Of a DNA stretch of 29,777 nt, positions 1 to 26,919 are shown in pieces. This stretch comes from Myxococcota bacterium (lineage in GTDB: Bacteria; Myxococcota_A; UBA796; GCA-2862545). The position numbers and the translations under genes were made by a program. The DNA is taken from assembly GCA_040079715.1 (NCBI GenBank), contig JBEBJW010000001.1, forward strand, positions 1 through 29,777, in the 5' to 3' direction. The notes beneath the pieces are model-generated. The model was not told where the DNA came from, made no database searches, and worked only from the letters and a program-made list of their open reading frames with translations. Within the stretch, counting starts at the first letter, position 1. Each line of letters opens with the position of its first letter.

Positions 1-11
1 ACCCCGGGATG

Positions 12-473: not shown

Positions 474-518
474 GCGTCCCCCCGCCGGAACGTACCGCGG
501 CGCTGGGTCCTCGGGAGC

Positions 519-548
519 TTGACGATCCCGATCGCCGGTCTCTACAGT
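519..548 (+). promoter_or_regulatory. Sigma70-type promoter for the spike gene
   Basis: TTGACG (519-524), 18-bp spacer, TACAGT (543-548); GGGAGG RBS at 572-577 before ATG 585. Confidence 0.6.
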
Positions 549-584
549 GGGATACTCCTCTGTCTCTCATCGGGAGGCCCATCC

Positions 585-4811: not shown

Positions 4812-6194
4812 ATGAATCTTCGCTCGACCGCTCGGGGCTGGAATCGCGGAGCTGGTTCTCACGGTTTCTTGACCGCGATCGCGGCCTGGCTCCTGCTGTC
4901 CGGGGCGCCGGCCGCAGCGGGGGAGTTCCCGTACCCGGTCGCGCAGCAGACCCTCGACAACGGGCTCCGGCTGTACGTCGTGTCGATGCCGTCCACCGGT
5001 GTGGTCGCGTACGGCACTTGGATGTCGGTCGGGTCCCGCGACGAGGTCGACCTCGGGCGCACCGGGTTCGCCCACTTCTTCGAGCACCTGATGTTCCACG
5101 GCACGCCGACCGTGCCGGCGGCCGCCCGCGACCGGGAGATCCTCCGCCTCGGCGCGGACGACAACGCCTGGACCTGGCTCGACGAGACCGTGTACCACGC
5201 GATGCTGCCGTCGGCGTCGCTGCCGCGGTTCGTCGAGCTCGAGTCCGACCGGTTCGCGCACCTCGCGCTGACCCCGGAGGGCGTGAAGCGCGAGGCCGGC
5301 GCGGTGTACGGCGAGTACCGCAAGAACAGCGCCGATCCCGGCTCGGTCCTGTCGGTGGCGCTCGGGAAGGCCGCGTTCGGCGCCCACACGTACGGGCACG
5401 ACACGATCGGCCTCGAAGCAGACATCGCGGCGATGCCCACCGGTCACGAGGCTGCGCTCGCGTTCTTCGATCGGTTCTACCGGCCGGATCACGCCGCGGT
5501 GCTGGTGGTCGGCGACGTCGATCCCGCGTCGACGTTCGCGCTGCTGACCGCGGCGTACGGCGGGTGGGCGCGGTCGTCGGCGCCGCCGCCTCCGGTGCCG
5601 GTCGAGCCGCCGCAGACCGCGATCCGACGGGTGAACGTCGACTGGCCGACGCCCGCCACCGCCCAGATCGCGTTCGGGTGGAAGATCCCGGCGTTCCACG
5701 CGACCGATCCGACGGCGGCTCGCCTGGCGCTGGCCGGAGACCTGCTGCTCGCGTCGACCGGCCCGCTCGAGCGGCGGCTGGTCCGCGAGGAGGGGCTCGC
5801 GTACGCGGTGTACGGCGGCCCGGACGAGACGGTCGACCCCGGGCTGTTCCGGATCACGGTCGAGGCGCGCTCCACCGCCGACCTGCCGCGGATCGAGGCG
5901 GTGATCCGCGAGGAGCTCGCCCGGCTCGGTCAGGCGGTGGACCCGGCGGTGCTCGACGCGACCCGCGCCCACCGGCGGTACGCGTTCCTGGCCTCGCTCG
6001 ACGACCCGCTGACCGTGCTGCACGTCCTCGGCGATTCGCTCCGCCGCGATCCGGATCCGGCCGCGCTCGACGCGTACCGGGCGGCGATCGCCTCCGCGGC
6101 TGCCGACGAGGTGGCCGCGGCGATCCGCGACACGTTCGTCGACGCCCGGCTGACCGTCGCCACCCTCACCCCGCCGCCGGAGCAGACCCCGTGA
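4812..6194 (+). CDS. M16B zinc peptidase, catalytic subunit (secreted)
   Basis: Inverted zinc motif HFFEH in GRTGFAHFFEHLMFHGT, NAWT, FFDRFYRPDHA, R-x-GLAY. Start uncertain (ATG 4812 or TTG 4869). Confidence 0.9.
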   Translation: MNLRSTARGWNRGAGSHGFLTAIAAWLLLSGAPAAAGEFPYPVAQQTLDNGLRLYVVSMPSTGVVAYGTWMSVGSRDEVDLGRTGFAHFFEHLMFHGTPTVPAAARDREILRLGADDNAWTWLDETVYHAMLPSASLPRFVELESDRFAHLALTPEGVKREAGAVYGEYRKNSADPGSVLSVALGKAAFGAHTYGHDTIGLEADIAAMPTGHEAALAFFDRFYRPDHAAVLVVGDVDPASTFALLTAAYGGWARSSAPPPPVPVEPPQTAIRRVNVDWPTPATAQIAFGWKIPAFHATDPTAARLALAGDLLLASTGPLERRLVREEGLAYAVYGGPDETVDPGLFRITVEARSTADLPRIEAVIREELARLGQAVDPAVLDATRAHRRYAFLASLDDPLTVLHVLGDSLRRDPDPAALDAYRAAIASAAADEVAAAIRDTFVDARLTVATLTPPPEQTP

Positions 6195-7690
6195 TCCTCG
6201 CCGTCCTCGCCGCCGGGTGCGCCCCGAAGATCGACCCGGGCCCGGTCGCCGCCGAGGTCGCCGCCGCCCCGGTCCGGCTGGTCGCGAGGCCCGTCGCCGC
6301 CGCCCCGGACGTGTACTTCGCCGCGATCGTCGCGGCTGGCTCGGCGTACGATCCCGTGGGGAGCGAGGGGATCGCCGCGCTGACCCTCCGGGCCACGGTC
6401 GACGCCGGGGCGGGTGACCGCTCGGCGGCCGAGGTCCGCGACGCGCTGTACCCGCTCGGCGCCGCGTTCGACGTGGTGGTCGACCGCGAGTGGGCCTCGA
6501 TCCGGCTCCGGTGCCACCGGGACCACGTCGCCGCCTGCACCGCGCTGTTCGTCGACGCGCTGGTCCACCCCCGGTTCGACGACGCCGACGTGGCCAGGCT
6601 CCGCGACCGGTCGCTCGAGGCGGTGACCGACGGGATGCTCGCGGACGAGGAGACGCTCGGGCGCGAGGTCCTCGACGCCGCGCTGTACGAGGGCCACCCC
6701 TACGGGCACCCGCCCGACGGCCGGTCCGGGGTGCTGCCGCTGCTCGACGCCGCCGCCGCCCGCGCGTTCCACCACCGCCACTACGTCCGCGCGTCGATGG
6801 TGGTCGGGATCGCCGGCGGGTTCGACGACTCCGCGCAGGCCGCGCTCGCCGAGGCGCTCGACGCCGTCCCCGGGCTCCGCCCGCCCGAGCTGCCGCTGAT
6901 GCAGCCGGCGCCGGTCCTCGGCCGGTCGTTGGTCGCGGTCGACACCGACACCCCCGTGACCGGGTACTGGTTCGGCCAGCCGATCGCGCTCGATCGCACC
7001 GATCCGGACTGGGCCGCGATCCAGGTCGCGATCACCGCCCTCGGCGCGCACCGCCAGTCGTTCGGCCGGCTGTTCGAGGCCCTCCGCGGCGATCGCGGCC
7101 TGAACTACGGCGACTACGCGTACGTCGAGCCGTACATCGAGCGCGGCTCGGCGATGCCCGACCAGGGCGTGCTCCGGCGCCAGAACCGGTTCGCGGTGTG
7201 GGTCCGCCCGACGTCGCTCGACAACGGGCCGTTCGCGCTGAAGCTCGCGGTCGACGAGGTCGAGCGGTGGGTCGCCGACGGGCTGACCGCGGACGAGTTC
7301 GACGACGTCCGGTCGTACCTCCGGTCCGGGCTGCCGGTGCTCGCCGCGGATCCCGGTCGACGGCTGGTGTACGCGCTCGACGCCGTCGCGACCGGGACCC
7401 CGGACCCGTTCGACACGCTGCCCGCGGCCCTCGACGCGTTGACCGTCGAGCAGGTCAACGCCGCGATCCGCGCCCACGTCGACCCGAAGAACCTGGCCGT
7501 GGTCGCGGTGTCCGGCGAGGCTGCAGCGCTCGTGACCGCGTTGACCGAACAAACCGCGACGCCGATCGTCTACGCTGACGGTGCGGCCGATCCGTCCCGG
7601 GCCGAGCGCGACGCGCGGGTCGCGGGCGCCACGCTCGGGATCGAGGCGGATCGGGTGACGGTGATCGACGCCGAGGGAGTGTTCCGATGA
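6191..7690 (+). CDS. M16B peptidase, non-catalytic partner subunit, probable lipoprotein (499 aa)
   Basis: GTG overlaps the upstream stop; LAAGC lipobox; M16 fold motifs (HPYGHP, LRGDRGLNYG) but no HXXEH. Confidence 0.85.
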   Translation: MILAVLAAGCAPKIDPGPVAAEVAAAPVRLVARPVAAAPDVYFAAIVAAGSAYDPVGSEGIAALTLRATVDAGAGDRSAAEVRDALYPLGAAFDVVVDREWASIRLRCHRDHVAACTALFVDALVHPRFDDADVARLRDRSLEAVTDGMLADEETLGREVLDAALYEGHPYGHPPDGRSGVLPLLDAAAARAFHHRHYVRASMVVGIAGGFDDSAQAALAEALDAVPGLRPPELPLMQPAPVLGRSLVAVDTDTPVTGYWFGQPIALDRTDPDWAAIQVAITALGAHRQSFGRLFEALRGDRGLNYGDYAYVEPYIERGSAMPDQGVLRRQNRFAVWVRPTSLDNGPFALKLAVDEVERWVADGLTADEFDDVRSYLRSGLPVLAADPGRRLVYALDAVATGTPDPFDTLPAALDALTVEQVNAAIRAHVDPKNLAVVAVSGEAAALVTALTEQTATPIVYADGAADPSRAERDARVAGATLGIEADRVTVIDAEGVFR

Positions 7691-8514
7691 CGGTTCGTCC
7701 GGTGTGGTTCGTCGCGGTGATCGGGCTCGGGACGGGGTGCGAGCAGGTCGGCCAGTTCCTCCCGAAGGTCCGGTTCGACGGGCTCGACGTCCGGACGATC
7801 GACTGGGAGGAGGCCGACGTGGACTTCGTGTTCGCGATCGACAACCCGAACCCGGTGTCGATCGGCCTCGCGTCGTTCAGCTACGACCTGAACCTCGAGG
7901 AGGTCGACTTCCTGTCCGGCGACAACCCGGACGGGTTCCAGCTGAAGGCCGAGGGGTCGGCGCCGCTGGTGCTGCCGCTCGATCTGCGGTACGCCGACAT
8001 CTGGAACACGATCGAGGCGACCCGCGGCGAAGACGTGGTCGACTTCCTGCTGTCGGGCGGGATGGGGTTCGACACGCCCGCCGGCAACATCCAGCTCCCG
8101 TACAACGAAGACGGCGGGTTCCCCGCGCTCCGCACGCCGAAGTTCACGTTCCAGGCGGTCCGGGTGAACGCCCGGCGCGGGTTCGGGGTGGTCGACGTGG
8201 AGGTCGATCTCGGCGTCGACAACGAGCACGGCTCGTCGCTGTTCTTCGACGCGTTCGACTACGGGCTGTCGCTGAACGACAAGCGCGTCGCGAACGGGAT
8301 CGTCGACACGTTCTCGGTCGACGGCGCGACCACCGGCACGGTCACGCTGCCGATCGCGCTGGATCTGCTGACCGCGGGCACCGAGCTGTTCGACGTGCTG
8401 ATCAGCGGGGGCCGGGTGGACCTCGGGCTCGACGCGACGGTCGACGTGGACACGCCGTTCGGGATCGTCCCGCTGTCGATCGACGAGACCGGGAACCTGA
8501 AGGTGGAGCTGTAG
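7687..8514 (+). CDS. Lipoprotein with tandem LEA_2/WHy domains, 275 aa
   Basis: GTGC lipobox; two repeats of the pattern F.IDNPN...F.YDL.L / VDNEH...FDYGL.LN; ATGA overlap with the upstream gene. Confidence 0.8.
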   Translation: MTVRPVWFVAVIGLGTGCEQVGQFLPKVRFDGLDVRTIDWEEADVDFVFAIDNPNPVSIGLASFSYDLNLEEVDFLSGDNPDGFQLKAEGSAPLVLPLDLRYADIWNTIEATRGEDVVDFLLSGGMGFDTPAGNIQLPYNEDGGFPALRTPKFTFQAVRVNARRGFGVVDVEVDLGVDNEHGSSLFFDAFDYGLSLNDKRVANGIVDTFSVDGATTGTVTLPIALDLLTAGTELFDVLISGGRVDLGLDATVDVDTPFGIVPLSIDETGNLKVEL

Positions 8515-8644
8515 GGCTCGCACCTGCCCGGGGTGAGGGTGGGGATCCGCACGTCCACCCGCGCCCGCAGAGCGCCGGGTGGCGTCCCGTCGTCCGCGGC
8601 CTCCGGCAGGCCCGGGTGGGGTATCGTGCCGCGCGGGAGGTCCG

Positions 8645-9622
8645 ATGTCCGGGATGCGGTGGTGGCTCGCGGGCGCAGCGCTGGCCGGGTGCGGCGGTGA
8701 TCCCGCGACCGAGGTGGATCTCGGCGACGGCCCGTCCGACGGGGACACCGACACCGACACCGACGCGGACAGCGACGCCGACGCGGACAGCGACGCCGAC
8801 ACCGACACCGACGCCGACGCCGATGCGGACAGCGACACCGACGCCGACACCGCCGGGTCGACCTCCGACACCGCGCCGGACGGGCGCGACTACTCGACCG
8901 ACCGCGACCTGTTCTTCGGCGACAGCCGGTGCGGCGGGGCAGGCCTGGTCCTGTGCGACGGGTTCGAGGACGGCGCGATCGACTTCGGGCGGTGGGCGGC
9001 GCACCCGTGGGCGCCGCTCCCGACCATCGACGCGACGCAGGCGGCGCGCGGCTCGGCCTCGCTGCACTTCCACACCGACCAGAACGGGTTCGCCGCCCTG
9101 GTGCAGTCGTCGGTGTTCCCGATGCCGGGCGACGCGTACTGGGGCCGGCTGTTCGTCCGGTTCGACGCGCTGCCCACCGCGCCGTCGTGGGCCCACTGGA
9201 CGATCGTCGGCGCGACCGGACCGGACGTCCCGGGCGAGATCCGGGTCGGCGGCCAGTTCGACCCGTACTTCGGCGCGAACCGGTGGGGGGTCGGGTCAGA
9301 CGGCGGAGCGACCGGCGACTGGATGTTCCTCGACGAGGACGCAGGGCCCGCCGCGGCCGCCGACGACACCTGGTCGTGCATCGAGTGGTACCACGACGCC
9401 GGCGCCGACCTCACCACGTTCTGGTGGGACGCGGTCGAGCACCCGTCCCTCGCGACCACCGCGGCGGACCACGGCGGGAGCGGCGCGCCGTACACGCTTC
9501 CGGCGTTCGACGCGCTGTGGATCGGGTGGTGGCTGTACCAGGGGAGCCCCGACCCCGATCACTACGACGTGTGGATCGACGAGGTCGCGATCGACGGGGA
9601 GCGGATCGGCTGCGTGCTGTAG
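8645..9622 (+). CDS. Lipoprotein with Asp-rich linker and Cip1-like beta-sandwich domain
   Basis: GGGAGG RBS; LAGC lipobox; LCDGFE, IDATQAARGSASLH, EIRVGGQ, W.CIEW and terminal VWIDEVAIDGERIGC resemble the fungal Cip1 core as recalled. Confidence 0.7.
   Translation: MSGMRWWLAGAALAGCGGDPATEVDLGDGPSDGDTDTDTDADSDADADSDADTDTDADADADSDTDADTAGSTSDTAPDGRDYSTDRDLFFGDSRCGGAGLVLCDGFEDGAIDFGRWAAHPWAPLPTIDATQAARGSASLHFHTDQNGFAALVQSSVFPMPGDAYWGRLFVRFDALPTAPSWAHWTIVGATGPDVPGEIRVGGQFDPYFGANRWGVGSDGGATGDWMFLDEDAGPAAAADDTWSCIEWYHDAGADLTTFWWDAVEHPSLATTAADHGGSGAPYTLPAFDALWIGWWLYQGSPDPDHYDVWIDEVAIDGERIGCVL
8744..8851 (+). repeat. (GAC-NNN)x18 coding repeat encoding a D-[TAS] linker
   Basis: 18 consecutive Asp-X dipeptides read directly from the sequence. 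Confidence 0.9.
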
Positions 9623-9626
9623 CGGC

Positions 9627-10928
9627 TCAGCCGGCGATCAGGCCGTCGAGGATCATCCCGGGGGCGTCGACGTGGCCGATCCGGTCGGTGTCCGAGCACA
9701 CCTCGACCACCGCTCCGAGCACCGCGGTGAGGTCGCCGGTCAGCCGGAGGTTGCGGACCGCGCCGATCGGCCGGTTGCCCTCGACCACCACCCCGTGGAC
9801 CCGCGTGTCGAGCGCCCCGGTGGCGAAGTCGACGTCCCGCTCGAGGTTCGGGAGATCGTCGACGATCAGCACCTGCTGGCCGAGGTCGGCGAGGGTCGCG
9901 TTCATCGAGCGGGTGCCCGACCGGAGCAGCAGGTTGGTCGGCCGGTTCCGGTCGCCGAACACGTGCCCGGTGGGGAGCAGGTCGTGGCGGTGGGCGAGCG
10001 ACGGCCCGACGAACCGCCCGTCGACCCGGCCCTCCTTGAGCAGGGTCAGCGGGATCGGGCACACGCCGCGATCGTCGAACGAGGTGGACCGGAGTCCGCC
10101 CGGCAGCGTGCCGTCGTCCTGGAGGTGGAGGCGCGGATCGACCGCCGGGGCGCCGTCCGCCCGTCGGGTCAGGAACAACGTGGCCTCTGCGTCGAACCGC
10201 TCCGCCAGCGCCGCGAACAGCCGGGCGACCGGCAGCGGCGGGAGCATCACCCGGACCGGGCCGGCGAGGGGCACCGCGGGCTGGAGCAGGTCGACCGCCC
10301 GCCGGGCGAGGTTCGTGCCGTACGGCAGCGACGCGATCGACGCGAACGTCCGGGCGTCGACCGTGTCGGTCAGCGCGATCTCGTCGCCGTGGACCGACAC
10401 CGACACCGTGCCGGACGTGTGGTAGGTCGAGTCGGTCTCCTCGAGCAGCACCCCGCGGCTGTTCGCGAACCGCCGGACCCGCAGCCGGTCGCGGTACCCG
10501 AACCCCGACGCCGCGAGCCGCCGATCGACCTGGCGGACCGCGCGCTCGGCGGTGGTGACGACCTCGACCCGATCGTCGAGGGTGACCTGGTCGTACCGCC
10601 GATCGAGCACCCCGAGGCCGCCGAGGGTCCCGGCCTGGCGCGCGACCGGCCCGCCGTGCGGATCCTCCGGGGCGGACCCCGCGCGGGTCGAGGCGGCGTC
10701 GAGCAGCGCGTCGGCGTCGTCCGGGAGCCCGGCAGCGCCCCCGTACCGGCCGCCCTCGAGCCACAGCCGCACCTCGAGGTGCTCGCGCGGAGCGACCTCG
10801 ACCGGCGTGACCCGCCCGCGGTGGATCCCGAGCTCGTTGCCGGTCTCGCGGGACCACAGCAGCTCGACCCCGCGCACCCCTTGCTTCCGCGCGCGTTCGA
10901 TCCGTTCGCGGAGCGCCCTGCCGTCCAT
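9627..10928 (-). CDS. TldD/PmbA family protein (PmbA/TldE-like), 433 aa
   Basis: FANSRG, PVRVMLPP, DDGTLPGGLRSTSFDDRG, PTNLLLRSG, G.....VRNLRLTG motifs; no HExxxH seen. Confidence 0.82.
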   Translation of the reverse strand: MDGRALRERIERARKQGVRGVELLWSRETGNELGIHRGRVTPVEVAPREHLEVRLWLEGGRYGGAAGLPDDADALLDAASTRAGSAPEDPHGGPVARQAGTLGGLGVLDRRYDQVTLDDRVEVVTTAERAVRQVDRRLAASGFGYRDRLRVRRFANSRGVLLEETDSTYHTSGTVSVSVHGDEIALTDTVDARTFASIASLPYGTNLARRAVDLLQPAVPLAGPVRVMLPPLPVARLFAALAERFDAEATLFLTRRADGAPAVDPRLHLQDDGTLPGGLRSTSFDDRGVCPIPLTLLKEGRVDGRFVGPSLAHRHDLLPTGHVFGDRNRPTNLLLRSGTRSMNATLADLGQQVLIVDDLPNLERDVDFATGALDTRVHGVVVEGNRPIGAVRNLRLTGDLTAVLGAVVEVCSDTDRIGHVDAPGMILDGLIAG

Positions 10929-11000
10929 CGCCGACCCTCTCCCGTACCCGATCGGACTGTGCCCGATGCGGGCCGTCCGCGCCAGCGATACATCGGCGCG

Positions 11001-11990
11001 ATGTGGATCCCGCTGGTCCTCGCCTGTGTCGCCGCCCCGACTCCCCCGGAGGGCCCTGCGCCCGCGTCACCCGCGGAGGGCGCGCCGATCACCGCTGCGC
11101 CGGCCCCCTCGGCGCGCCCGCCGGACACCCCCGACGTGACCACCTCGTCGAGCCCGGCTGCCCCCGGGGGCACCGACGGCCGGGTGTACGCGATCGGCGA
11201 TCTCCACGGCGACTTCGACAACGCGATCGCCGCGCTGGCGATCACCGGGCTGGTCGACGCCACCGGCCGGTGGACCGGCGGCACCGCGACCCTGGTCCAG
11301 ACGGGCGACGTGGTGGATCGCGGCGACGAGGGCAAGCGGCTGTACGCCTGGCTCCGCGCCCTGTCCGCCGAGGCGACGGCCGCGGGGGGACGGGTGGTGC
11401 CGCTGCTCGGGAACCACGAGGTGATGAACCTCCGCGGCGACTGGCGGTACGTGTCGCCGGGCGATCTCGCGGCGTACGGCGGGGAGGAGGCGCGGAAGGC
11501 CGCGTTCTCGGCGACCGGCGAGGACGGCAAGTGGCTGCGGACCCTCGACGCGGTGGCGACGGTGGGCGACACGGTGTTCGTCCACGGCGGGGTCACCCCG
11601 GAGTGGGCGTCCCCGGACGTGAACGGACGGATCCGGGCCGCGATCGACGCGAAGGAGCCCGATCCGGCGATCGGCGACACGGGACCGCTGTGGTGGCGGG
11701 GGTACGTCACCGATCCGGAGGCGACGGCCTGCCCGACCCTCGGGACGGCGCTGGCGGCGCTCGGCGCGAAGCGGATGGTGGTCGGCCACACGACCCGGCG
11801 CGACGGCCGGGTCGAGGCGCGGTGCGGCGGCGCGCTGGTGGTGATCGACATCGGGATCAGCGACGGGTACGGCGCGCACCTCGGCGTGGTGGAGCTCCGC
11901 CCTGTGCCCGGAGCGATGGGCGGACCGGCAGCGACGACGGACCTGTGGGTCGACTACCCGACCGGACCGGAGGATCTCCCGGACCCGTAG
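11001..11990 (+). CDS. Shewanella-like PPP metallophosphoesterase, probable lipoprotein, 329 aa
   Basis: GDLHGD, GDVVDRG, GNHE, HGG, GHT and IDIG motifs; N-terminus MWIPLVLAC then a Pro/Ala linker. Confidence 0.88.
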   Translation: MWIPLVLACVAAPTPPEGPAPASPAEGAPITAAPAPSARPPDTPDVTTSSSPAAPGGTDGRVYAIGDLHGDFDNAIAALAITGLVDATGRWTGGTATLVQTGDVVDRGDEGKRLYAWLRALSAEATAAGGRVVPLLGNHEVMNLRGDWRYVSPGDLAAYGGEEARKAAFSATGEDGKWLRTLDAVATVGDTVFVHGGVTPEWASPDVNGRIRAAIDAKEPDPAIGDTGPLWWRGYVTDPEATACPTLGTALAALGAKRMVVGHTTRRDGRVEARCGGALVVIDIGISDGYGAHLGVVELRPVPGAMGGPAATTDLWVDYPTGPEDLPDP

Positions 11991-11994
11991 CCGG

Positions 11995-12417
11995 TCAGCG
12001 GAGGACGAGCGGGAACGGTCCGAGGTCGACCGACAGCGAGCCGTCGTCGAACGCGCCGATGATCTGGGGGTTCATCGGCTTCTCACCGACCAGATCCTGC
12101 GCCTCGCCGACCAGCCAGAACTGGACCGCCGTGCCCCAGCACCCCTCGACCACCGGCAGGGCGCGGGCGGTCATCGAGAACGACCCGGACCCGTCGGTCG
12201 TGGCCTCGCCGTGGACCGTGCCCGGCGACCAGTTGCGCTCCTCGAGCTGGACGTTGGCGTCGGGGATCCCGGCCCCGTCGTCGTTCACCACCCGGCCGGA
12301 GATCGTCACGTCGATCTCGGTCACGTCGCCGCACGCGCCCTGCGGGTCCGTCGTCTCGCCGGAGTCCCCGGTCTCTCCGTCGCCGCTGCACCCGATCGCC
12401 ATCGCCCACAACCACAT
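11995..12417 (-). CDS. Small lipoprotein with carboxypeptidase-regulatory-like (transthyretin-like) domain, 140 aa
   Basis: MWLWAMAIGC; ISGRVVNDDGAGIPDANVQL...ATTDGSGSFSM motif; GGAG RBS. Confidence 0.75.
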   Translation of the reverse strand: MWLWAMAIGCSGDGETGDSGETTDPQGACGDVTEIDVTISGRVVNDDGAGIPDANVQLEERNWSPGTVHGEATTDGSGSFSMTARALPVVEGCWGTAVQFWLVGEAQDLVGEKPMNPQIIGAFDDGSLSVDLGPFPLVLR

Positions 12418-12455
12418 GCGACCCGCTCCGTGGCGTCACGCTACCCGACGGGCGG

Positions 12456-12509
12456 CTGACCCGCGCGTCCGGACGACGTACCATTACCGACCGGAAACGC
12501 ACCGGAAAC
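12456..12509 (+). promoter_or_regulatory. Sigma70-like promoter and 8-bp direct repeat upstream of the 12542 gene
   Basis: CTGACC (12456-12461), 17 bp, TACCAT (12479-12484); CCGGAAAC at 12491-12498 and 12502-12509. Confidence 0.4.
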
Positions 12510-12541
12510 ATCCGCCGGTGACGATGGATCCAGGAGGCGAC

Positions 12542-13207
12542 ATGAAGACGTGGCTCGCGGTGACGGTCGGGGCGCTCGGGGCGGTCGCGATGGTCGGGTG
12601 CTTGCCGGCGACGGGGGACGACACCCTCGCGTCCACCGTGGCGTCGGACACCGAGGAGCTCGCGCGTACGGCGGAGTCGCTCGCGGCGGCGGCGGAGCTC
12701 GGCGGCGCGGAGCTGTCGATGTCCGGGGAGGTCCGCGGGGTGGGCGACTGCGTGTGGGCCTGGTCGGTGAACGGCCCGATCGCCGGAGCGGCATACGCGG
12801 CGGACGTGTCGGCGCCGTGCGGCGGTAGCGTCGGGGGCGAGCGCGTGTCGATCGACTACCAGGTCACCGCCGGGTCGATCGACGGCACGGTCGCGGCGGA
12901 CGGCGACGGGTGGACGTTCGACCTCACCGGGGTCCGCGAGGCGACGGTCGCGGTGACCACCGCCCGGCGCGGCGAGCAGACCGCGGACGGCCGGTTCGAG
13001 CTGACCGCGTTCACCGGCGCGGTGTCCGACGAGACCCTCGGCGCGTTCGACCTCGCGACCACCTACACCGGGTGGGCCGACGGGGTGTGGGACCTCGTGT
13101 TGTCCGCCGACGACGAGGGCGCGCTCGACGGCACGCTGACCGGCCCGAACGGCGGGACCTGCGCGGTCGGCGGGACCCGCGACGAGGCCGTGGTCACCTG
13201 CGAGTGA
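12542..13207 (+). CDS. Hypothetical lipoprotein, beta-rich, 221 aa
   Basis: GGAGG RBS; MKTWLAVTVGALGAVAMVGC signal and lipobox. Confidence 0.75.
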   Translation: MKTWLAVTVGALGAVAMVGCLPATGDDTLASTVASDTEELARTAESLAAAAELGGAELSMSGEVRGVGDCVWAWSVNGPIAGAAYAADVSAPCGGSVGGERVSIDYQVTAGSIDGTVAADGDGWTFDLTGVREATVAVTTARRGEQTADGRFELTAFTGAVSDETLGAFDLATTYTGWADGVWDLVLSADDEGALDGTLTGPNGGTCAVGGTRDEAVVTCE

Positions 13208-14585: not shown

Positions 14586-14642
14586 CACGACCTCCGGGCG
14601 CCCCTCCTTCACGTCGCGTGCCGACCTCCGCCGTCGGGACAA

Positions 14643-14690
14643 CCCTCGGTTTCGAGGGGACGACCGACGTCCGTCGACCGACGTCCGTCG
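14643..14690. repeat. Hairpin plus 14-bp tandem direct repeat in the esterase/gdhB divergent intergenic region
   Basis: CCCTCG-GTTT-CGAGGG (14643-14658); CGACCGACGTCCGT x2 (14661-14688). Confidence 0.8.
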
Positions 14691-14773
14691 GTTTGCGGAT
14701 CTCGTGCCGTCCGCCCGCGGTTGGATAGACTGCGGACCCGATCGATCGAGATCGCCCCTCTGAGGACCCGTTC

Positions 14774-19459: not shown

Positions 19460-19466
19460 CCACGCC

Positions 19467-20045
19467 GTGACCACCACCCGGTACTGGTTCGTGCGGCACG
19501 GCGAGTCCCTCGCGAACGCCGAGGGGTGGCTCGCAGGCCACCGCGACGTGCCGCTCACCGCGCTCGGGGTCGACCAGGCGAAGGCCGCGAAGGCCGCGCT
19601 GGTCGATGTCCGGCCGGACCGGGTGGTGTCGAGCGATCTGCGCCGCGCGGTCGACACGGCCCGGTTGGCGTGGGATCACCGGCTGCCACCGTCGCGGACC
19701 GCGGTCGAGGTCCGGGAGCGGGACCTCGGCGCGTGGGAGGGGCGGACGATCGGCGAGCTCGCCATCGACGGCGGGATGGCCACGCTGCTGTCGTGGGACC
19801 ACGGGCCGCCGGGCGGGGAGAGCCACCTGCTGCTCGGTCGGCGGGCGCTCGGGTTCCTGGCCGCGCGCGACGACGGCGCGTCGACGCTGCTGTTCGGCCA
19901 CGGCGGGTGGATCCGGACGGTGGTCGGGCTGGTGGACTGCGTGCCGTTGGCCGAGATCGGGCGGTTCAAGGTCGCGAACACCGAGGTGCTGATCCGCGAC
20001 GTCGAGCGGGGCACCTGGGCCCGGTGGTTGGAGCGCCTGAGCTGA
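19467..20045 (+). CDS. Histidine phosphatase (phosphoglycerate mutase family), 192 aa
   Basis: FVRHGES, SSDLRRA, ERDLGAWEG, PPGGES, GHGG. Confidence 0.9.
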   Translation: MTTTRYWFVRHGESLANAEGWLAGHRDVPLTALGVDQAKAAKAALVDVRPDRVVSSDLRRAVDTARLAWDHRLPPSRTAVEVRERDLGAWEGRTIGELAIDGGMATLLSWDHGPPGGESHLLLGRRALGFLAARDDGASTLLFGHGGWIRTVVGLVDCVPLAEIGRFKVANTEVLIRDVERGTWARWLERLS

Positions 20046-20066
20046 GGCCGCGCAGGTGACGCGCCG

Positions 20067-21203
20067 TCAGCTCCGCGGGGCGCCGAGCCGATCCAGGACC
20101 TGCGCGAGCTGCGCGAACCCGGTCCGCAGCAGGAACGTGGTGGCGCGCCCGTAGCTGTTCGCGCCGACCCGCACGTACCCGGGCTCGCCGGTCTCGAGGT
20201 CGTCGGGGGACACCCGCGGGACCGTCAGGCAGTCGGTGACGCCCGCCAACGCGAGGGCCAGCCGCGCGGTGCCCTCGGTGGTCGGCGCCACCTCGAGCGC
20301 CAGCTCCGACACAGGCCCGAGGTCCGGCCGGTACCCGACCAGCCCGACGATCGCGTCCACCTCGGTGACCACCCGGCCACCGGACAACCGGACCTCGCGC
20401 GGGGCGATCGCCTCGACCGTCGCGCGGCGCTCGACCCGCAGCCACGGGGGCGGGCGGGCCGCGAGCCCGTTGGCGTCACCGACGACCCGGGCCCGCTCCG
20501 GGAGCGGATCGTTCGCCACGTCCACGCACGGGCGGGTGTTGCCCGACCGGGTGGCCCAGACCACCGACGCGCCGGCGTCACCGAGCCACCGGACCGCGTG
20601 GGCGGCGGAGTGCCCGTGCCCGACCAGCACCACCCGCCGGTCGGCCAGGCGCGGGAGGGCGTCGCGGAGCCCGCCGAGGTCCCGGATCACCGGCGCAGCG
20701 GGCTCACCCGGCGCCGGCAGCCCGCCGGACCCGAGCCACTGCGGGGTGCCGTACACGCCGGTGGCGTCGAGGACCGCGTCCGCCTCGAGCCACGACCCGC
20801 GACCGTCGGCCTCGACCACCAGCCGGAACGGCCGCTCGGCCCGGATCGGGTGGTTCGGGTAGTCGCCCCGGCGCATCCCGGCGCGCCCGATCGCGACCAC
20901 CCGGTGGCCGACCCGGACCCGCTCCCCGAGGTGGGCGGCGACCGGGCGGAGCACCTGCGCGACGTGCTCGGTGCCGGTCAGCAGGGCGTCCGCGGCCGGG
21001 CAGGACCCGCCCAGGACCTCGGCGATCTCCGGGGTCAGGTTCATCGACACCGGGGAGAACAACCGGACGCCGCCCCACCGGAGCAGCGCGCCGCCGACCT
21101 GGTCGCGCTCGAGCACGGTGACGTCGTGTCCGCGGCGGACCGCGCCGAGGGCCGCGGCGAGCCCGATCGGCCCGGCGCCGACCACCACCACCCGGCGGTT
21201 CAC
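20067..21203 (-). CDS. FAD/NAD(P)-dependent oxidoreductase (flavin monooxygenase-like, ArsO-like), 378 aa
   Basis: VVVVGAGPIGL Rossmann motif, W..VRLFSP, DATG, VGHGHSA, VGANSYGRATTFLLRTG; GTG start overlaps the upstream stop. Confidence 0.8.
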   Translation of the reverse strand: MNRRVVVVGAGPIGLAAALGAVRRGHDVTVLERDQVGGALLRWGGVRLFSPVSMNLTPEIAEVLGGSCPAADALLTGTEHVAQVLRPVAAHLGERVRVGHRVVAIGRAGMRRGDYPNHPIRAERPFRLVVEADGRGSWLEADAVLDATGVYGTPQWLGSGGLPAPGEPAAPVIRDLGGLRDALPRLADRRVVLVGHGHSAAHAVRWLGDAGASVVWATRSGNTRPCVDVANDPLPERARVVGDANGLAARPPPWLRVERRATVEAIAPREVRLSGGRVVTEVDAIVGLVGYRPDLGPVSELALEVAPTTEGTARLALALAGVTDCLTVPRVSPDDLETGEPGYVRVGANSYGRATTFLLRTGFAQLAQVLDRLGAPRS

Positions 21204-21526
21204 TTGCGGGCGATCGTGTTCAGGGTCTGGGCCCAGTGCGCGATGGTCCCGCCGCCGCGGATCGCGGCCGCCACCTGGAGCGCCTCGGCCAGCTCCTCCG
21301 GGGTGATCGTGTCGTCGGAGCAAGCCGACGCATACGAGTCGATGCAGTACGGCTCCTGGATCGCGTTCGCGACGGCGTAGGCGATCAGCTTCTTGGTCTT
21401 GCCGTCGAGCGCGCCGGGCTCCATCACCGCGCGGTACCAGTTCAGGAACAGGTCGAACCGGACGGGGTCGGTCTTGCCGATCTCGCCGAACCGGGCCAGG
21501 TCTTCGGACAGGTAGTAGCTGGGCAC
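21200..21526 (-). CDS. AhpD/carboxymuconolactone decarboxylase-like protein resembling the arsenosugar-biosynthesis-associated peroxidase-like family, 108 aa
   Basis: YY...DL..FG.I, GALDGKTKKLIAYAVA, QEPYCIDSY, AAAIRGGG..AH..Q motifs; GAGG RBS before GTG 21526. Confidence 0.8.
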   Translation of the reverse strand: MPSYYLSEDLARFGEIGKTDPVRFDLFLNWYRAVMEPGALDGKTKKLIAYAVANAIQEPYCIDSYASACSDDTITPEELAEALQVAAAIRGGGTIAHWAQTLNTIARK

Positions 21527-21699
21527 GTGCACCTCGGTGGAGCAGGTGGGGGTAACCTCGGGCGGGGTCTGACGGGATACCCGGCGTGGTCCCGGATCCC
21601 CGGCTCCGGCGGGTCGCACCGGCCCGGGCGGCCGCTGCGGGCCAGGTCCCGGCACGGGAGGCCGTGCGGGGTGGTATCGTCCGGGTCCCCGGAGGTCGG

Positions 21700-23304
21700 A
21701 TGTTGCTCGCGATCGCGCTCGGATGCCAAGAACCGAAGGACACGACCGACGTCGGTCCGGACCCGACCCCGACCGACACCCCGTCGCCGTCGACCACGCC
21801 GACCCCGACCGGGCCGACGACCACGACCACGACGACCACGACGACCACGACGACCACGACGACGACCACCACCGCGCCGGATCCGTGCGCGGTCGACCCC
21901 ACCCTGACGATCTCGGCGGTGGCGTCGCAGCCGTGGCACGAGAACGAGGCGGCGTTCACGGTCGACCTCAGCGCCGCGGCGTCGGTCGCGGTCGCGTGCA
22001 CCCTGCGGGACGATCCGGCCGAGGTCCACCTGATCGAGGGGACCGAGGCGGCCGACCACCACGAGCTCCGGATGTCGGGGCTGCTGGCCGACGCGACCTA
22101 CGACTGCGTCGCCGGTGCCGTGTGCCCCCAGACCGCGGATCCCGTCGGGTTCGAGCTCGTGACCGGTCCGCCGGTCGACTACCTGCCCGCGGTCGACGTG
22201 TTCGACTACGGCGGCGCCGGCTCCGAGTACGTGCTCGCCAACCACAGCCGCGGCTGCAACGTCCCGACCCAGAAGCTGCTCGTGTTCGACCGCGCCGGGC
22301 GGATCCGCTGGTGGTACACCACCGAGGAGGCCGGTCCGTCGGTCGAGTTCCGGTACCACGGCGGCGACCAGTTCGAGTGGGGCGGCGGGTGGGCCCCGAA
22401 CAACGACGGCCGGCCGCGCCAGGTCGACCTGTACGACGGCCAGATCTACGACAGCGCCGCCGCCCTCCCCGATTGGCAGGGCAGCCTGTTCCATCACGAC
22501 GGCAAGCAGCTCCCGGACGGCCGGATCCTGACCCTCGAGGAGGTCGAGATCGACGACGGCGGCGGCGGGTTCCGCGGGTTCCGGGTCCGGCGGTTGGATC
22601 CGGCGACGAACACGGTGGACTTCGACTACCACAGCCAGCGGGCGTTCGACGAGGATCAGCTCCCGGTCCCGTTCACGTTCGACGGCGACGCCTGGCACGC
22701 CAACTGGGTCGACATCGTCGACGAGAAGCTGTATGTCAGCCTGTGCAACATCCAGGAGGTCGCGGCGATCGACGTCGCCACCGGTGACTGGCTGTGGACG
22801 TTCGGCGCGGACGGCGAGTTCGACCTGTTCGATCCGTTCGGCGACGCGCTCCCGCGGACGCAGTTCACCCAGTGCCAGCACGGCCTCGAGTACACCCCGG
22901 ACGACCACCTGCTGGTGTACGACAACGGGCGTCAGCGCGGGTTCACCCGGGTCGCCGAGTACGCGCTCGACGTCCCCGCCCGCGCCGCGACGCTGCTGTG
23001 GAGCTGGACCGAGGACGACTGGTACGAGGAGATCCTCGGCGACGCGGACTGGCTGCCGAGCGGCCACGCGCTGGTCCTCGCCGGGCACGAGGAGTGCTAC
23101 TCGTCGAACCGCGGCGACCACACCACGATCTACGAGGTGGACCCCGTCGCCGGCGACAAGGTGTGGGAGCTCCAGTACCGCGACATCGAGCGGATGGCGT
23201 ACCGCGCCGACTGGGCCGACCCGTGCGCCCTGTTCGCCAACGCCGCGTACTGTCCGGCGATCGGCGACCGCCTGGCGGCGCTGGCGGAGGTGCTGACGCC
23301 GTAG
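21700..23304 (+). CDS. Arylsulfotransferase (ASST)-like beta-propeller lipoprotein with Pro/Thr linker, 534 aa
   Basis: GGAGG RBS; MLLAIALGC; FHHD..QLPDG, HANWV, QCQHG, LLVYDNG, GDADWLPSG. Confidence 0.75.
   Translation: MLLAIALGCQEPKDTTDVGPDPTPTDTPSPSTTPTPTGPTTTTTTTTTTTTTTTTTTTAPDPCAVDPTLTISAVASQPWHENEAAFTVDLSAAASVAVACTLRDDPAEVHLIEGTEAADHHELRMSGLLADATYDCVAGAVCPQTADPVGFELVTGPPVDYLPAVDVFDYGGAGSEYVLANHSRGCNVPTQKLLVFDRAGRIRWWYTTEEAGPSVEFRYHGGDQFEWGGGWAPNNDGRPRQVDLYDGQIYDSAAALPDWQGSLFHHDGKQLPDGRILTLEEVEIDDGGGGFRGFRVRRLDPATNTVDFDYHSQRAFDEDQLPVPFTFDGDAWHANWVDIVDEKLYVSLCNIQEVAAIDVATGDWLWTFGADGEFDLFDPFGDALPRTQFTQCQHGLEYTPDDHLLVYDNGRQRGFTRVAEYALDVPARAATLLWSWTEDDWYEEILGDADWLPSGHALVLAGHEECYSSNRGDHTTIYEVDPVAGDKVWELQYRDIERMAYRADWADPCALFANAAYCPAIGDRLAALAEVLTP
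21817..21873 (+). repeat. ACG/ACC repeat encoding 19 consecutive Thr
   Basis: Read directly; largely ACGACCACG units. Confidence 0.9.
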
Positions 23305-23357
23305 CGGATGTGACGAACGTGTGGCATCGTCGGGCGTCCGTGTAACGAGGAGGTCCG

Positions 23358-24368
23358 ATGTGGCTGCTGGTCGCGTGCACCCGGACGCTGGTCCCACAGG
23401 CCAGCGGTCCCGACGACGGGTCCGACCCGACGACCGACGGCTCCACCTCCGGCACCGACGGCGCGTCGTCGACCGGCGACACCGGCCCCACGCTGCCGAC
23501 GACCGACCCGGACTGCCTCGCGCCGCGGGTCGAGGGCCCGGTGCCGTTCGGGACGATCGAGCGGATCCAGACCGAGGAGGACTTCGACTTCGATCGCGAC
23601 GGGCACCTCGTCGCGCAGCACGGCAACGATCTCCTCGGGTACCTCCGCGACGGCGGGACCGCAGTCGTCGCGCCGGGGATCGGGCCCGACGCGGCCGGGA
23701 TCCGCGCGCTCACCACCGGCGACTTCGTGGTCGCCCAGCCGGACACCGGCGTCGTGAAGCTGGTCGACGGCCTGACCGGCGGCTCGGTCAACGCGTTCAC
23801 CGATCTGCGGTCTCCGAACGGGGTCGAGGCGGGCGTCGACGGGTTCGTGTACCTGTCGGAGTTCACGCTGTCCGGCAAGCTCCGGATGGTCGAGCCGTAC
23901 ACCGGAGCCGAGCGGTTGCTGCTCGGTGACTCGCCGATCAACGCCATCGCGCTGTCTCCGGACGAGCAGGTGCTGTACGTGTCTTCGTACGGATACGGAG
24001 GCGGCGGCGCGTTCAACGGGATCGCGGCCCTGGATCGCGAGCCCGACGGGAGCTGGAACGTGTTCCCGCGCGAGGTCCTGGCGGCCGAGGCGCTGATCCA
24101 GGGCCTGGTGACCGACAAGTGCGGGAACCTGTACTCGGTCGAGTCGCAGACCGGCATCGTCCGCCGGTACAACCTCGCGGACCAGACGGTCGACGTGCTC
24201 GCGAACCTCGGCGACGCCGGCGGCTACGGGTACGGGTTCTTCTCGAGCGCCCGGTTCGGGCCGGGGATCGGCGGGTGGAACCGCACCGAGCTGTACGTCA
24301 CCGACCGGGCGCGGATCTACGTGATGGACGTGGGGATCGAGGGGCGCCACGTCCTCGCTGCGGACTGA
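23358..24368 (+). CDS. SMP-30/gluconolactonase-like beta-propeller, probable lipoprotein, 336 aa
   Basis: GAGGAGG RBS; EDFDFDRDG, SPNGVEAGVDG.VYLSE, NAIALSPDEQVLYV, GL.TD.CGNLY, ELYVTD. Confidence 0.78.
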   Translation: MWLLVACTRTLVPQASGPDDGSDPTTDGSTSGTDGASSTGDTGPTLPTTDPDCLAPRVEGPVPFGTIERIQTEEDFDFDRDGHLVAQHGNDLLGYLRDGGTAVVAPGIGPDAAGIRALTTGDFVVAQPDTGVVKLVDGLTGGSVNAFTDLRSPNGVEAGVDGFVYLSEFTLSGKLRMVEPYTGAERLLLGDSPINAIALSPDEQVLYVSSYGYGGGGAFNGIAALDREPDGSWNVFPREVLAAEALIQGLVTDKCGNLYSVESQTGIVRRYNLADQTVDVLANLGDAGGYGYGFFSSARFGPGIGGWNRTELYVTDRARIYVMDVGIEGRHVLAAD

Positions 24369-24371
24369 TCG

Positions 24372-25553
24372 CTACCGAGGCTGGGCGACCCACGCCGCGA
24401 TCGTCGCCCGCTCCTCGTCGGTCATCTTCGTCAGGTTGCCGAGCGGCATCGCGCGGGTCGACACGACCTGGACCCCGATCGCCTCGCGGAGGGCCTCGAT
24501 CGTCTCCGGGCGGTCGAGGACCACGCCCTTCGGCGGCGACGCGAGGCCGGCGAGGATCGGGCGCGCGGTGTGGCACGGCAGGCACCGCTGCGCCACGATC
24601 ATCTGGACCGTCACCAGCGGCACCGCCGGCGCCCCGTCCACCGGCGCAGGCCGCGCGGGCCGGGCGTACAGGGCGGCCGCGACGAGGGACCCCGCCGCGA
24701 TCGGCCACAGCCACGGCATCGGGCGACCGCGCTCGGCGGTGTTCAGGGCGTGCCGCACGGCGACCCCGGCGCCCGCGATCCCGAGCAGCACCAACCACCC
24801 GTGCGGATGGCCCCACGTGCTCGGCGTGTGGCCGCTGATCATCACGAACAGCACCGGGAGGGTGAAGTAGTTGTTGTGGAGGGACCGCTGCGCCCCGGCC
24901 GCGCCGCGCTCGACCGGCGGCGGCGCCCCCGCGACCATCGCGTCGACCATCGCCCGCTGGCCGGGGATGATCACGAACAGCACGTTGGCGGCCATCCAGG
25001 TCCCGAGCATCGCCCCGACGTGGAGGTACGCGGCGCGCGGGGCGAGCACCTGGAACAGCCCCACGTCCGCCGTCACCACCAGCGCGATCACCGCGGCGGC
25101 CAGGACCCGCGGGTGGCGTGCCAACGCGCGGCACGCGAGATCGTACGCGACGTACCCGCCCGCGAGGGCTGCGGCGGCGACCCCGACCGCGGCGCCGGGG
25201 CCGATCGGCGAGTCCGGGGTCACCATCGTGGCGGCCGCGTTCGACCAGTACACCAGCAGCAGCAGGAAGAACCCGGACAGCCAGGTGAGGTAGGCCTCCC
25301 ACTTGAACCAGTGGAGCTCGGCGGGGAGGGTCTCCGGGGCGCCCCCGTACTTCTGCACGCGGTAGAACGCGCCCCCGTGGACCGCCCACAGGTCGCCGGC
25401 GACCCGCGGCGACACGTCCGCGGTGAGGGGCGGGCGGACCGCGTTGTTCAGCCACACGAAGTAGAACGACGCGCCGATCCACGCGATCCCGAGGGTCAGG
25501 TGGAACCAGCGGCCCAGCAACCCGAGCCACTCCGCGAGGTATCCGTCGATCAT
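24372..25553 (-). CDS. puuD: Membrane urate hydroxylase PuuD (Urate_ox_N plus C-terminal cytochrome c), 393 aa
   Basis: RWFHL..GIAWIGASFYF, W.VHGG.FY, LHWFKWEAY.TWLSG, RS.HNNYFTLPVLF.MIS.H, CLPCH heme motif, MPLGN.T.MT.EER. Confidence 0.92.
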   Translation of the reverse strand: MIDGYLAEWLGLLGRWFHLTLGIAWIGASFYFVWLNNAVRPPLTADVSPRVAGDLWAVHGGAFYRVQKYGGAPETLPAELHWFKWEAYLTWLSGFFLLLLVYWSNAAATMVTPDSPIGPGAAVGVAAAALAGGYVAYDLACRALARHPRVLAAAVIALVVTADVGLFQVLAPRAAYLHVGAMLGTWMAANVLFVIIPGQRAMVDAMVAGAPPPVERGAAGAQRSLHNNYFTLPVLFVMISGHTPSTWGHPHGWLVLLGIAGAGVAVRHALNTAERGRPMPWLWPIAAGSLVAAALYARPARPAPVDGAPAVPLVTVQMIVAQRCLPCHTARPILAGLASPPKGVVLDRPETIEALREAIGVQVVSTRAMPLGNLTKMTDEERATIAAWVAQPR

Positions 25554-25616
25554 GGCCCGGCTCCGGACGACCGACCCCGTATCGCGTCGCGGGTCGAACG
25601 TCGTGGACCCCGCGCC

Positions 25617-26882
25617 CTACGGCTCCGACACCAGGATCCGCGCCACGCACATCTCGTCCGTCGTCTCCTCGCCCCACCACACGTCCTGGTCGGTCCGGTT
25701 GTCGTACAGACACGACAGGCGGAGCTGATCGGTCGGCCGGAGCGAGAACGGCTCCTGGAGCCAGTACTCGAGCTGCCAATCGTAGTCCCACCGCGGGATG
25801 TCGAGCAGGGTCAGCGTCTCGTCGCCGCGGATCACCTCGAGCTTCGCCGAGACTCCGGTGGTGTGCATGTGGAGCAGCACCCAGTGCACGAGCACGCCGT
25901 CTTCGTCGTGGAACTCCGGGAGCGCGTCCGTCTCGCCGGACACGGTGGTGGTCAGCGTGTGGCGCTGGCGCTCGCCCGCAGGCACCGCCACGCTGTTGTG
26001 CCGCGACCACGCCGAGGTGCCGATCTTCACGTCGGCGGCCTTGCGATCCACCTCGTCGGCCAGGGTGAACTCGACCCGCGACCAGTCCGGCGCGCCGTCG
26101 GACCCGGGGGTGAAGTAGTGGGCCTTCAGGATCACGGTGGCGTCGGCGGGCAGGTGCATCCCCACGCCGTCCGGGAACGACTCGGCCCCGCGGCCCGGGA
26201 GCCAGCCGCCGAGCTGGACGTAGTCTCCGGGGAACGACGAGCCGCCGGTCTCCTCCGGCTTGCACGCGAACCCGGGGCCGGGGTCCCCCGCGTCGGCGAG
26301 CTGAGGTGTGTTCTCGGCGTCGGTCGGGGTGACGGCCACCAGCATCATGTGATGCGCGCCGGACCCCGCGCCGGGTCGGATCCGCAGCCCGGTGACCCAC
26401 GCGTCGCCGATCGCGCTCCGGTCGAGCACGAAGCACCGGTTGTCGTCCGGGACCACCGTCGGGACGTAGCCGTCGTCCATCCGCAGGGTGACGTCCACGT
26501 CGTCGAGGGCCTGCGGCTCGGGCCCGGACAGCAGCGCGTCCGGGTCGCCGTCCCCGAGCGGCCCGTCGGCGTCGGCCCACGCGGTGACCGTCGCGATCTC
26601 GTCGTCCGTCAGCGAGGGATCGTCCAAGAACGCCACGTCGCCCGGACCGGCGCGCCACGGTGGCATCGTGCGCGACGCGACGACCGACCCGATCACCGGC
26701 GCGAACGCCTGGAACTCGCGCCAGGTCCGCAGCGGGATCGTCAGCCCGGTCCCGTCGTGGCACCCGGCGCACCGCGCGACGATCGGGGCCACCTCGACCC
26801 AGGTGGGCGGGGCGTGGCGAGGCCCGTGGGGCGCATCGGCGGCGCACCCGATCGCGAACAGCACCGGCATCCAGCGGCTCAC
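25617..26882 (-). CDS. Lipoprotein: N-terminal heme c domain plus copper type II (PHM/DBH-like) monooxygenase
   Basis: AIGC lipobox, CAGCH, MPPW, HHM, HY, HMH, WDYDWQ..Y, CLYDN, DEMC. Start GTG 26882 or ATG 26870. Confidence 0.82.
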   Translation of the reverse strand: MSRWMPVLFAIGCAADAPHGPRHAPPTWVEVAPIVARCAGCHDGTGLTIPLRTWREFQAFAPVIGSVVASRTMPPWRAGPGDVAFLDDPSLTDDEIATVTAWADADGPLGDGDPDALLSGPEPQALDDVDVTLRMDDGYVPTVVPDDNRCFVLDRSAIGDAWVTGLRIRPGAGSGAHHMMLVAVTPTDAENTPQLADAGDPGPGFACKPEETGGSSFPGDYVQLGGWLPGRGAESFPDGVGMHLPADATVILKAHYFTPGSDGAPDWSRVEFTLADEVDRKAADVKIGTSAWSRHNSVAVPAGERQRHTLTTTVSGETDALPEFHDEDGVLVHWVLLHMHTTGVSAKLEVIRGDETLTLLDIPRWDYDWQLEYWLQEPFSLRPTDQLRLSCLYDNRTDQDVWWGEETTDEMCVARILVSEP

Positions 26883-26919
26883 CCGGTGGATATACCGCGG
26901 CGACGCCCGGGCCGGGGCC

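Follow-up and report, generated by a model that had tools for sequence, protein, structure and literature searches.

The window analysed here is a whole contig of 29,777 nucleotides (GenBank JBEBJW010000001.1, assembly GCA_040079715.1; 72% G+C) from a metagenome-assembled genome (MAG) of an uncultured member of the Myxococcota. The MAG was derived from a drinking-water metagenome and comprises 8.7 Mb on 1851 contigs, with an estimated contamination of 7%. Six genes of the window, each predicted to begin with a very short, uncharged hydrophobic leader that runs straight into a lipobox cysteine, are the subject of this report.

The first of these genes (6191..7690, forward strand) encodes an M16-family peptidase lipoprotein. 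It starts at a GTG, reads VILAVLAAG and has its cysteine at residue 10 (codon 6218-6220); the GTG overlaps the stop codon of the preceding M16 gene (GTGA). A calcineurin-like metallophosphoesterase lipoprotein (Metallophos; 11001..11990, forward strand) follows, starting at an ATG with MWIPLVLA and Cys at residue 9. The CarboxypepD_reg-like lipoprotein of 140 residues on the reverse strand (11995..12417) starts at an ATG with MWLWAMAIG and Cys at residue 10. A TGA six codons upstream (12436-12438) forces this start, and a GGAG precedes it. An arylsulfotransferase (ASST)-like lipoprotein with a poly-Thr tether (21700..23304, forward strand) starts at an ATG with MLLAIALG and Cys at residue 9, and a GGAGG occupies positions −10 to −6 of this ATG, 5 nt upstream. 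In the tether, 19 Thr codons stand in a row (21790-21880). The shortest leader, MWLLVA with Cys at residue 7, belongs to a lipoprotein of 336 residues without a Pfam match that is a member of an expanded family (23358..24368, forward strand). Its ATG is likewise forced, by a TAA four codons upstream (23343-23345), and is preceded by GAGGAGG. The sixth gene (25617..26870, reverse strand) encodes a Cu2_monoox_C-domain protein with a CxxCH motif; it starts at an ATG with MPVLFAIG and has Cys at residue 9.

A first reading of the window from its sequence (the original prediction) had listed these six leaders, the one at 26870 only as a possibility, each followed by a low-complexity tether, and had noted the lack of upstream starts and the presence of ribosome-binding sites at 23358 and 12417, the GGAGG at 21700 and the coupling of 6191 to an upstream stop. 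All of these features were found, and the tether was rich in Pro, Thr, Asp, Gly or Ser in all six cases. The original prediction had gone on to propose that the lineage uses a minimal lipoprotein export signal with unusual recognition by Sec, Lgt and LspA, and had suggested the genome-wide position of the first cysteine as a check.

For this check, coding open reading frames (ORFs) were called with a heuristic based on the G+C content of third codon positions (GC3), which gave 5241 ORFs genome-wide. The lipobox scan searched the 5' end of each stop-to-stop frame for a hydrophobic stretch with a lipobox Cys and required a tether-like continuation, a filter that is weak in a high-GC proteome. 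The Cys position was regarded as forced when no ATG, GTG or TTG puts the cysteine past a given residue. The cysteine could not lie past residue 14 in 122 of the 460 candidates, nor past residue 10 in 63 of them. The maximal Cys positions clustered at 8–10 and 13–17. In 10 candidates the distance from the upstream stop to the cysteine was at most 12 codons, and 140 candidates had both a short and a canonical start option. A Shine-Dalgarno (SD) sequence preceded 52% of the starts in the class with Cys no later than residue 10 and 64% in the class with Cys at 11–14. For comparison, the share was 46% among well-defined starts taken over all genes and 12% among internal ATGs.

The residue after the pattern was also counted. 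At first start codons, Met or Val followed by five to eight uncharged hydrophobic residues and Gly, Ala or Ser preceded Cys 69 times, Ser 10, Thr 12, Gly 20 and Asp 1 times. The same pattern at internal positions preceded Cys 67, Ser 197, Thr 213 and Gly 408 times, Cys being the rarest of these. Since the excess of Cys at the lipobox position was confined to N-terminal occurrences, the pattern lies far beyond chance, and a chance origin was rejected by these residue and position controls.

The short signals had a distinctive composition. Lys and Arg were absent from all signals whose Cys lies at or before residue 10 (0/63), which have no charged n-region; of the 59 signals with Cys at 11–14, 40 contained one or the other. 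The uncharged stretch of the shortest class (Cys 7–10) averaged 6.9 residues; canonical lipoprotein signals have an h-region of about 7–22 residues, and both the h-region and the Cys position of this class fall short of the usual. Trp occupied position 2 in 30% of the shortest class (1.8% in the proteome) and occurred at positions 2–4 in 41% of the signals with Cys at 7–10, 27% of those with Cys at 11–14 and 3% of those with Cys at 15 or later. Summed over each signal, the Wimley-White interfacial free energy was close to −2.4 kcal/mol whichever of the three length classes was considered, as would be expected from a trade-off between length and hydrophobicity. A lipobox was a selection criterion of the scan, but the composition found at its positions is canonical: Ala (64) and Gly (57) at −1 among the 122, Leu at −3 in 57, and Ala, Val or Leu at −2.

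The mature parts of the proteins carried signatures of export. In the window, the Pfam domains of the products (M16, Metallophos, CarboxypepD_reg, ASST, and Cu2_monoox_C with CxxCH) are of periplasmic or surface type. CxxCH is the attachment motif for c-type haem and is used on the periplasmic side. It was present in 15 of the 122 short-signal proteins (12.3%) and in 1.4% of other ORFs, an approximately ninefold difference (odds ratio 9.9, p = 9e-10). Without the lipobox Cys, the number of cysteines in the mature parts of short-signal proteins was even in 82 and odd in 28 (75% even), compared with 234 even and 272 odd in cytoplasmic-like controls (46% even; Fisher p = 5e-8). Such even counts fit disulfide-bonded periplasmic proteins in which the first Cys is used for lipidation. 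The Pfam families, the CxxCH motifs and the even Cys counts all point indirectly to an extracytoplasmic location of the mature proteins.

Short, uncharged signals were also seen among presumed substrates of signal peptidase (SPase) I. In ORFs with an SD at the most upstream possible start, they were 10–17 residues long and had AxA-like ends (e.g. MISLWTVASA|D, MVPWVWSVASA|A, MVWLLAAVAWA|G and MWFGTFVAAHA|Q). They occurred in the genus, family and order, and not in the other-class control. A restriction of the trait to lipoproteins was rejected, because these SPase-I-like signals are short and uncharged as well. Judged from the signals of both types, the trait is a general loss of the n-region from Sec signals, since SPase-I-type signals share it, and it is most extreme in SPase-II signals, which have shorter h-regions in any case (PMC9360617). 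The minimal signal proposed for this lineage thus received strong, though indirect, support from the forced starts, the frequency of ribosome-binding sites, the Cys enrichment, the export signatures and the relatives described below, but not as a peculiarity of lipoproteins.

The distribution of forced cysteines at residue 14 or earlier was scored in at most 400 kb of sequence per group, and sampling outside the order was small. Such cysteines were found in 6 of 21 candidates in the same genus and in 8 of 26 in a closed 9.4-Mb single-contig genome of the same family (MLILLATAC, MWILTLLGC, MLWLALIAC). Two samples from other families of the order gave 3 of 25 and 3 of 9, including VFLLAC. In these small samples, none were found in genomes of other orders of the same class (0/8) or of other classes (0/22 and 0/4), the latter with ordinary M-K/R... 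signals of 18–24 residues. Four further MAGs of the genus, the closed family genome and members of other families of the order also carried short signals on orthologous and paralogous proteins. Among homologues of the 23358 protein across the genus, family and order, the N-termini include MWRWLAAC, MPFSLALLAAC, MFFVFQATLLGC and MIALLWAC; others have short Arg-containing signals of 12–16 residues. This protein family has 18 matches in the source genome (contigs C94, C19, C1396, C1775 and others) and up to 14 in relatives, and an EEDFDFD motif is conserved after the tether.

The translocon was inspected for clade-specific changes. SecY, encoded on contig C55, was aligned to that of E. coli (5abb_A), and the numbering was checked on the residues named in PMC2171872. 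The set comprised 65 Myxococcota sequences, from 26 genomes of the order and 39 outside it. In the SecY of the source genome, I187 is replaced by Ser and F192 by Gly, while F67, I191, I278, F286 and I408 are conserved. Outside the order, all 39 genomes had Ile (38) or Met (1) at position 187, whereas the 26 genomes inside it were divided between Ser (13) and Ala (13). Only this and one other of the 455 SecY columns had disjoint residue sets in the two groups. At the remaining five ring positions, all 65 sequences had Ile or Val. Position 192 held a small residue in 26 of 26 sequences of the order and Phe, Met or Tyr in 34 of 39 outside, and F286 varied inside the order only. The second disjoint column (SecY residue 352) matches E. 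coli Q361, which lies in the C5 loop on the cytoplasmic side, where SecA and the ribosome dock; the residue was Glu, Gln or Asp in 26 of 26 sequences of the order, with Lys or Arg predominating in the outside set.

In E. coli, I187 belongs to the Ile ring of the pore, and prlA suppressors at ring residues let altered signals through (PMC2171872). Such prl mutations make the closed channel less stable and thereby lower the requirement for a signal (PMC2585858), and diverse pore-ring substitutions produce super-active translocators, the ring conveying proofreading (PMC13537251). If a prlA-type change is defined as one that alters a residue of the pore ring, the plug or the lateral gate, position 187 carries one. 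Because the ring substitution co-occurs with short signals, and in view of the prlA literature, we tentatively propose that the order has a naturally relaxed SecY channel that tolerates weak signals, a possibility drawn from co-occurring clade-level traits to which we give somewhat less than even weight. As in E. coli prlA and super-active SecY mutants, a bulky ring Ile has given way to a small or polar side chain, and the cell presumably exports proteins whose signals would be defective in wild-type E. coli. Unlike in those mutants, the change is natural, fixed in the whole order and at I187, and its functional effect is a prediction; I187 is not among the prlA sites named in the cited papers on prlA (G69, I191, I278, S282, I408). 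A stronger claim, that this order-wide change at I187, together with the small residue at F192, co-evolved with a proteome-wide collapse of signals in which the n-region was lost and lipoprotein leaders shrank to 5–9 residues, appears less likely than not.

The source genome encodes six Lgt, three LspA, one Lnt, two LolA, one SecA and one SecY. The six Lgt-family paralogues lie on contigs C269, C630, C620, C1777, C157 and C671, and the copy on C269 is divergently paired with an LspA gene. Across the phylum, genomes carried one to eight Lgt and one to three LspA copies, trait-negative genomes included, and Myxococcus xanthus has four lspA genes (PMC8048626). An expansion of Lgt and LspA as the clade-specific cause was rejected, since multiple copies occur throughout the phylum and do not explain the trait. 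The unusual recognition that the original prediction had attributed to Sec, Lgt and LspA together thus finds only partial support: SecY shows a clade-defining ring substitution, while the Lgt, LspA and Lnt genes are present and their multiple copies are not clade-specific. The catalytic Asp residues of LspA lie inside the membrane (PMC9360617), which fits short h-regions.

Taken together, we consider it probable that the short forms are genuine starts of lipoprotein precursors whose Sec/SPase-II signal is reduced to a minimum, and that such signals are inherited as a trait across an entire order of uncultured Myxococcota. The signal would consist of the initiator Met, four to seven strongly hydrophobic residues, often with Trp at positions 2–4, and a normal lipobox ([LAV][AVL][AG]C), with no Lys/Arg n-region. 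The short hydrophobic N-terminus would engage SecA/SecYEG, with the free alpha-amino group as sole positive charge and Trp as interfacial anchor. Lgt would then diacylglycerylate the Cys, LspA would remove the peptide of 5–9 residues, and Lnt would N-acylate the Cys. Less certainly, the small or polar Ser or Ala at I187 and the small residue at F192 might cause a prlA-like relaxation of gating and proofreading.

Such signals resemble Sec/SPase-II signals but, as read from their sequences, depart from them in two defining respects, the lack of a charged n-region and the short length. The PROSITE rules place the Cys at 15–35 and a Lys or Arg within the first seven residues, and the short signals fail both. 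With canonical signals (E. coli Lpp type; PROSITE PS51257/PS00013, DOLOP) they share an N-terminal hydrophobic stretch, a lipobox of the form [LVI][ASTVI][GAS]C and a flexible tether, and Lgt, LspA, Lnt and LolA are encoded in the source genome. They differ in lacking a positive n-region, in having 5–9 residues before the Cys instead of roughly 15–25, and in being rich in Trp at positions 2–4. A literature search found no paper describing ultra-short uncharged lipoprotein signals. A precedent, as cited in PMC8048626, is work of 2007 in which the lipoprotein pathway acts on a lipobox very near the N-terminus without a normal signal peptide. Unlike that precedent, hundreds of unrelated proteins are concerned here, with no sign of Tat (twin-arginine translocation) motifs or partners. 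The earlier case reportedly concerned one protein, probably carried across the membrane by the Tat signal of its partner.

Several points weigh against the reading of the short leaders as functional, clade-wide Sec/SPase-II signals. Three of the six window genes have an in-frame GTG upstream of the short start. The RNA-seq runs searched for the window did not contain it, and RNA or proteome data were likewise not found. Trait status was sampled in about seven genomes inside the order and about five outside it, and the sample from other orders of the same class amounted to only 8 candidates. BamA and TolB keep signals of about 21–22 residues with one Arg. To our knowledge, a hydrophobic stretch of 5–8 residues is shorter than any h-region that works in model bacteria, and lipidation of the short-leader Cys by Lgt, cleavage by LspA and N-acylation by Lnt are predicted steps. 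The correlation with SecY rests on a single clade and may reflect one evolutionary event, the effect of Ser or Ala at position 187 on channel gating is a less certain proposal, and yeast Sec61 reportedly tolerates Thr in its ring.

If the true starts lay further upstream, at GTG or non-canonical codons, the signals would be of normal length and the short forms artefacts of start calling, as the original prediction had itself cautioned. The upstream GTGs, which the original prediction had not noted, give this idea its foothold, along with the 140 candidates that have both options. GTG 10959 would extend the 11001 product to MPDAGRPRQRYIGAMWIPLVLAC, a 22-residue signal with an Arg-rich n-region and Cys at 23, and GTG 21664 would extend the 21700 product to MRGGIVRVPGGRMLLAIALGC with Cys at 21. 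GTG 26882, which is the NCBI call for the 26870 gene, would give MSRWMPVLFAIGC, in which the signal is MSRWMPVLFAIG and the Cys lies at only residue 13. Public gene callers take the short start in four of the five genes checked (23358, 12417, 11001 and, in Logan, 26870). For most genes, the idea is rejected by the forced starts and orthologues: the stops four and six codons upstream of 23358 and 12417, the 10 candidates with at most 12 codons from stop to Cys, the 122 without a start that puts the Cys past residue 14, and the normal frequency of SD sequences before short starts. Same-genus orthologues of the 21700 gene start with MWLALLAC and MHGMILAAWLGC, the latter with a stop 10 codons upstream, which supports ATG 21700 with its GGAGG over GTG 21664. 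Relatives of the 26870 gene start with MWLLSLFAGC, MWTLWLGC and MWMFAC, and in the last of these the Cys is residue 6 and a stop lies three codons upstream. The 11001 gene shares with two orthologues (L206 and L207) an upstream DNA block, TGCCCGATG-N12-GCCAG..ATAC(AT). In one orthologue this block sits in another frame relative to the gene, and its distance to the short ATG differs among the orthologues by non-multiples of three, so that the block is more likely regulatory than coding; an SD lies directly before the short ATG in both orthologues. The comparison of orthologues favours the short start for 21700 and 11001, and 11001 remains the least certain of the three ambiguous genes. Overall, we regard displaced starts as a very improbable explanation. 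A still fainter prospect, close to negligible, is that frameshifts, chimeras or sequencing errors truncated the N-termini in a MAG that is both fragmented and contaminated to the degree given above. The pattern recurs in the four genus MAGs, in the closed family genome and in other families, and it is sequence-specific (Trp, lipobox) in a way that truncation would not give. Independent assemblies from other samples and a second study match the window: the segment with the stop, SD and start of the 23358 gene (23169-23535) was identical in their contigs, and zero indels were seen across 10500-27500.

The starts could also be right and the route a different one, with insertion by YidC or spontaneously, another lipidating enzyme, or an uncleaved interfacial anchor in place of classical Sec, Lgt and LspA. 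A hydrophobic stretch of 5–8 residues cannot span the bilayer, and the six Lgt-family paralogues could include specialised enzymes. The lipobox is nevertheless canonical (Ala or Gly at −1 in 121 of 122, mostly Leu at −3), homologous mature domains alternate between short and ordinary-length signals, large soluble domains of periplasmic type, including the CxxCH and even-Cys proteins, need a translocon, and multiple Lgt and LspA copies extend to trait-negative genomes. A non-classical route appears unlikely on this balance, and the minimal Sec/SPase-II signal is the reading we prefer. The part played by SecY is much less certain: the ring change may just as well be unrelated to the short signals, a neutral or otherwise selected clade marker, with tolerance arising from the lipid make-up of the membrane, from properties of SecA or of the signal recognition particle (SRP), or from high hydrophobicity alone. 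Both traits fall on the same clade, compensation by hydrophobicity could suffice given the constant summed interfacial energy, and a second clade-specific SecY column lies in the C5 loop. Against this stand the rarity of columns that separate the clade perfectly, one of the two being a pore-ring residue, the invariant Ile or Val at the other five ring positions, and the literature that ties ring substitutions to relaxed signal requirements (PMC2171872, PMC2585858, PMC13537251).

The rules of a charged n-region, an h-region of at least about 7–10 residues and a Cys at residue 15 or later underlie the prediction of secretomes and lipoproteomes and much of the picture of Sec targeting. If 5–9 uncharged residues suffice, a large share of the envelope proteome of this order is probably invisible to rule-based predictors, and SecA/SecY, Lgt and LspA would need less information than assumed. 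The clade-specific ring change would then offer a direct and cheap experiment on how proofreading stringency is set and evolves. Should co-evolution hold, it would be the first natural case of translocon gating stringency and signal architecture evolving together, and the minimum sequence taken to suffice for Sec export and lipoprotein maturation would have to be redefined. Minimal leaders could also serve the engineering of secretion or surface display.

The block upstream of the 11001 gene (window 10940-11000) is located within a 72-bp intergenic region from which a TldD/PmbA-like gene and the gene of the metallophosphoesterase lipoprotein diverge. Three species of the genus have conserved it, and it probably serves as a promoter or operator. 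Its end in the window lies 8 nt before the ATG, and the mRNA of the gene may therefore be nearly leaderless.

Two further lipoprotein genes on the forward strand of the window carry Arg in signals of 13–18 residues. One encodes a LEA_2-domain lipoprotein (7687..8514), which serves as an internal contrast with its near-ordinary signal MTVRPVWFVAVIGLGTG and Cys at residue 18. The other (8645..9622) encodes a lipoprotein with an acidic tether of Asp, Thr, Ala and Ser repeats; its signal is MSGMRWWLAGAALAG, with Cys at residue 16, or at residue 13 if translation starts at the second Met (8654). Long acidic (D-[TAS])n repeat tethers occur on other lipoproteins of the genome too, as exemplified by window 8700-8850. 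At the contig edge (window 3-1469) lies a VgrG-like gene with a Phage_base_V or type VI secretion system (T6SS) spike OB domain. An NAD-specific glutamate dehydrogenase of 1561 residues, which served well as a marker for taxonomy, is encoded at window 14774-19459 and is 76% identical to one in another Myxococcota MAG.

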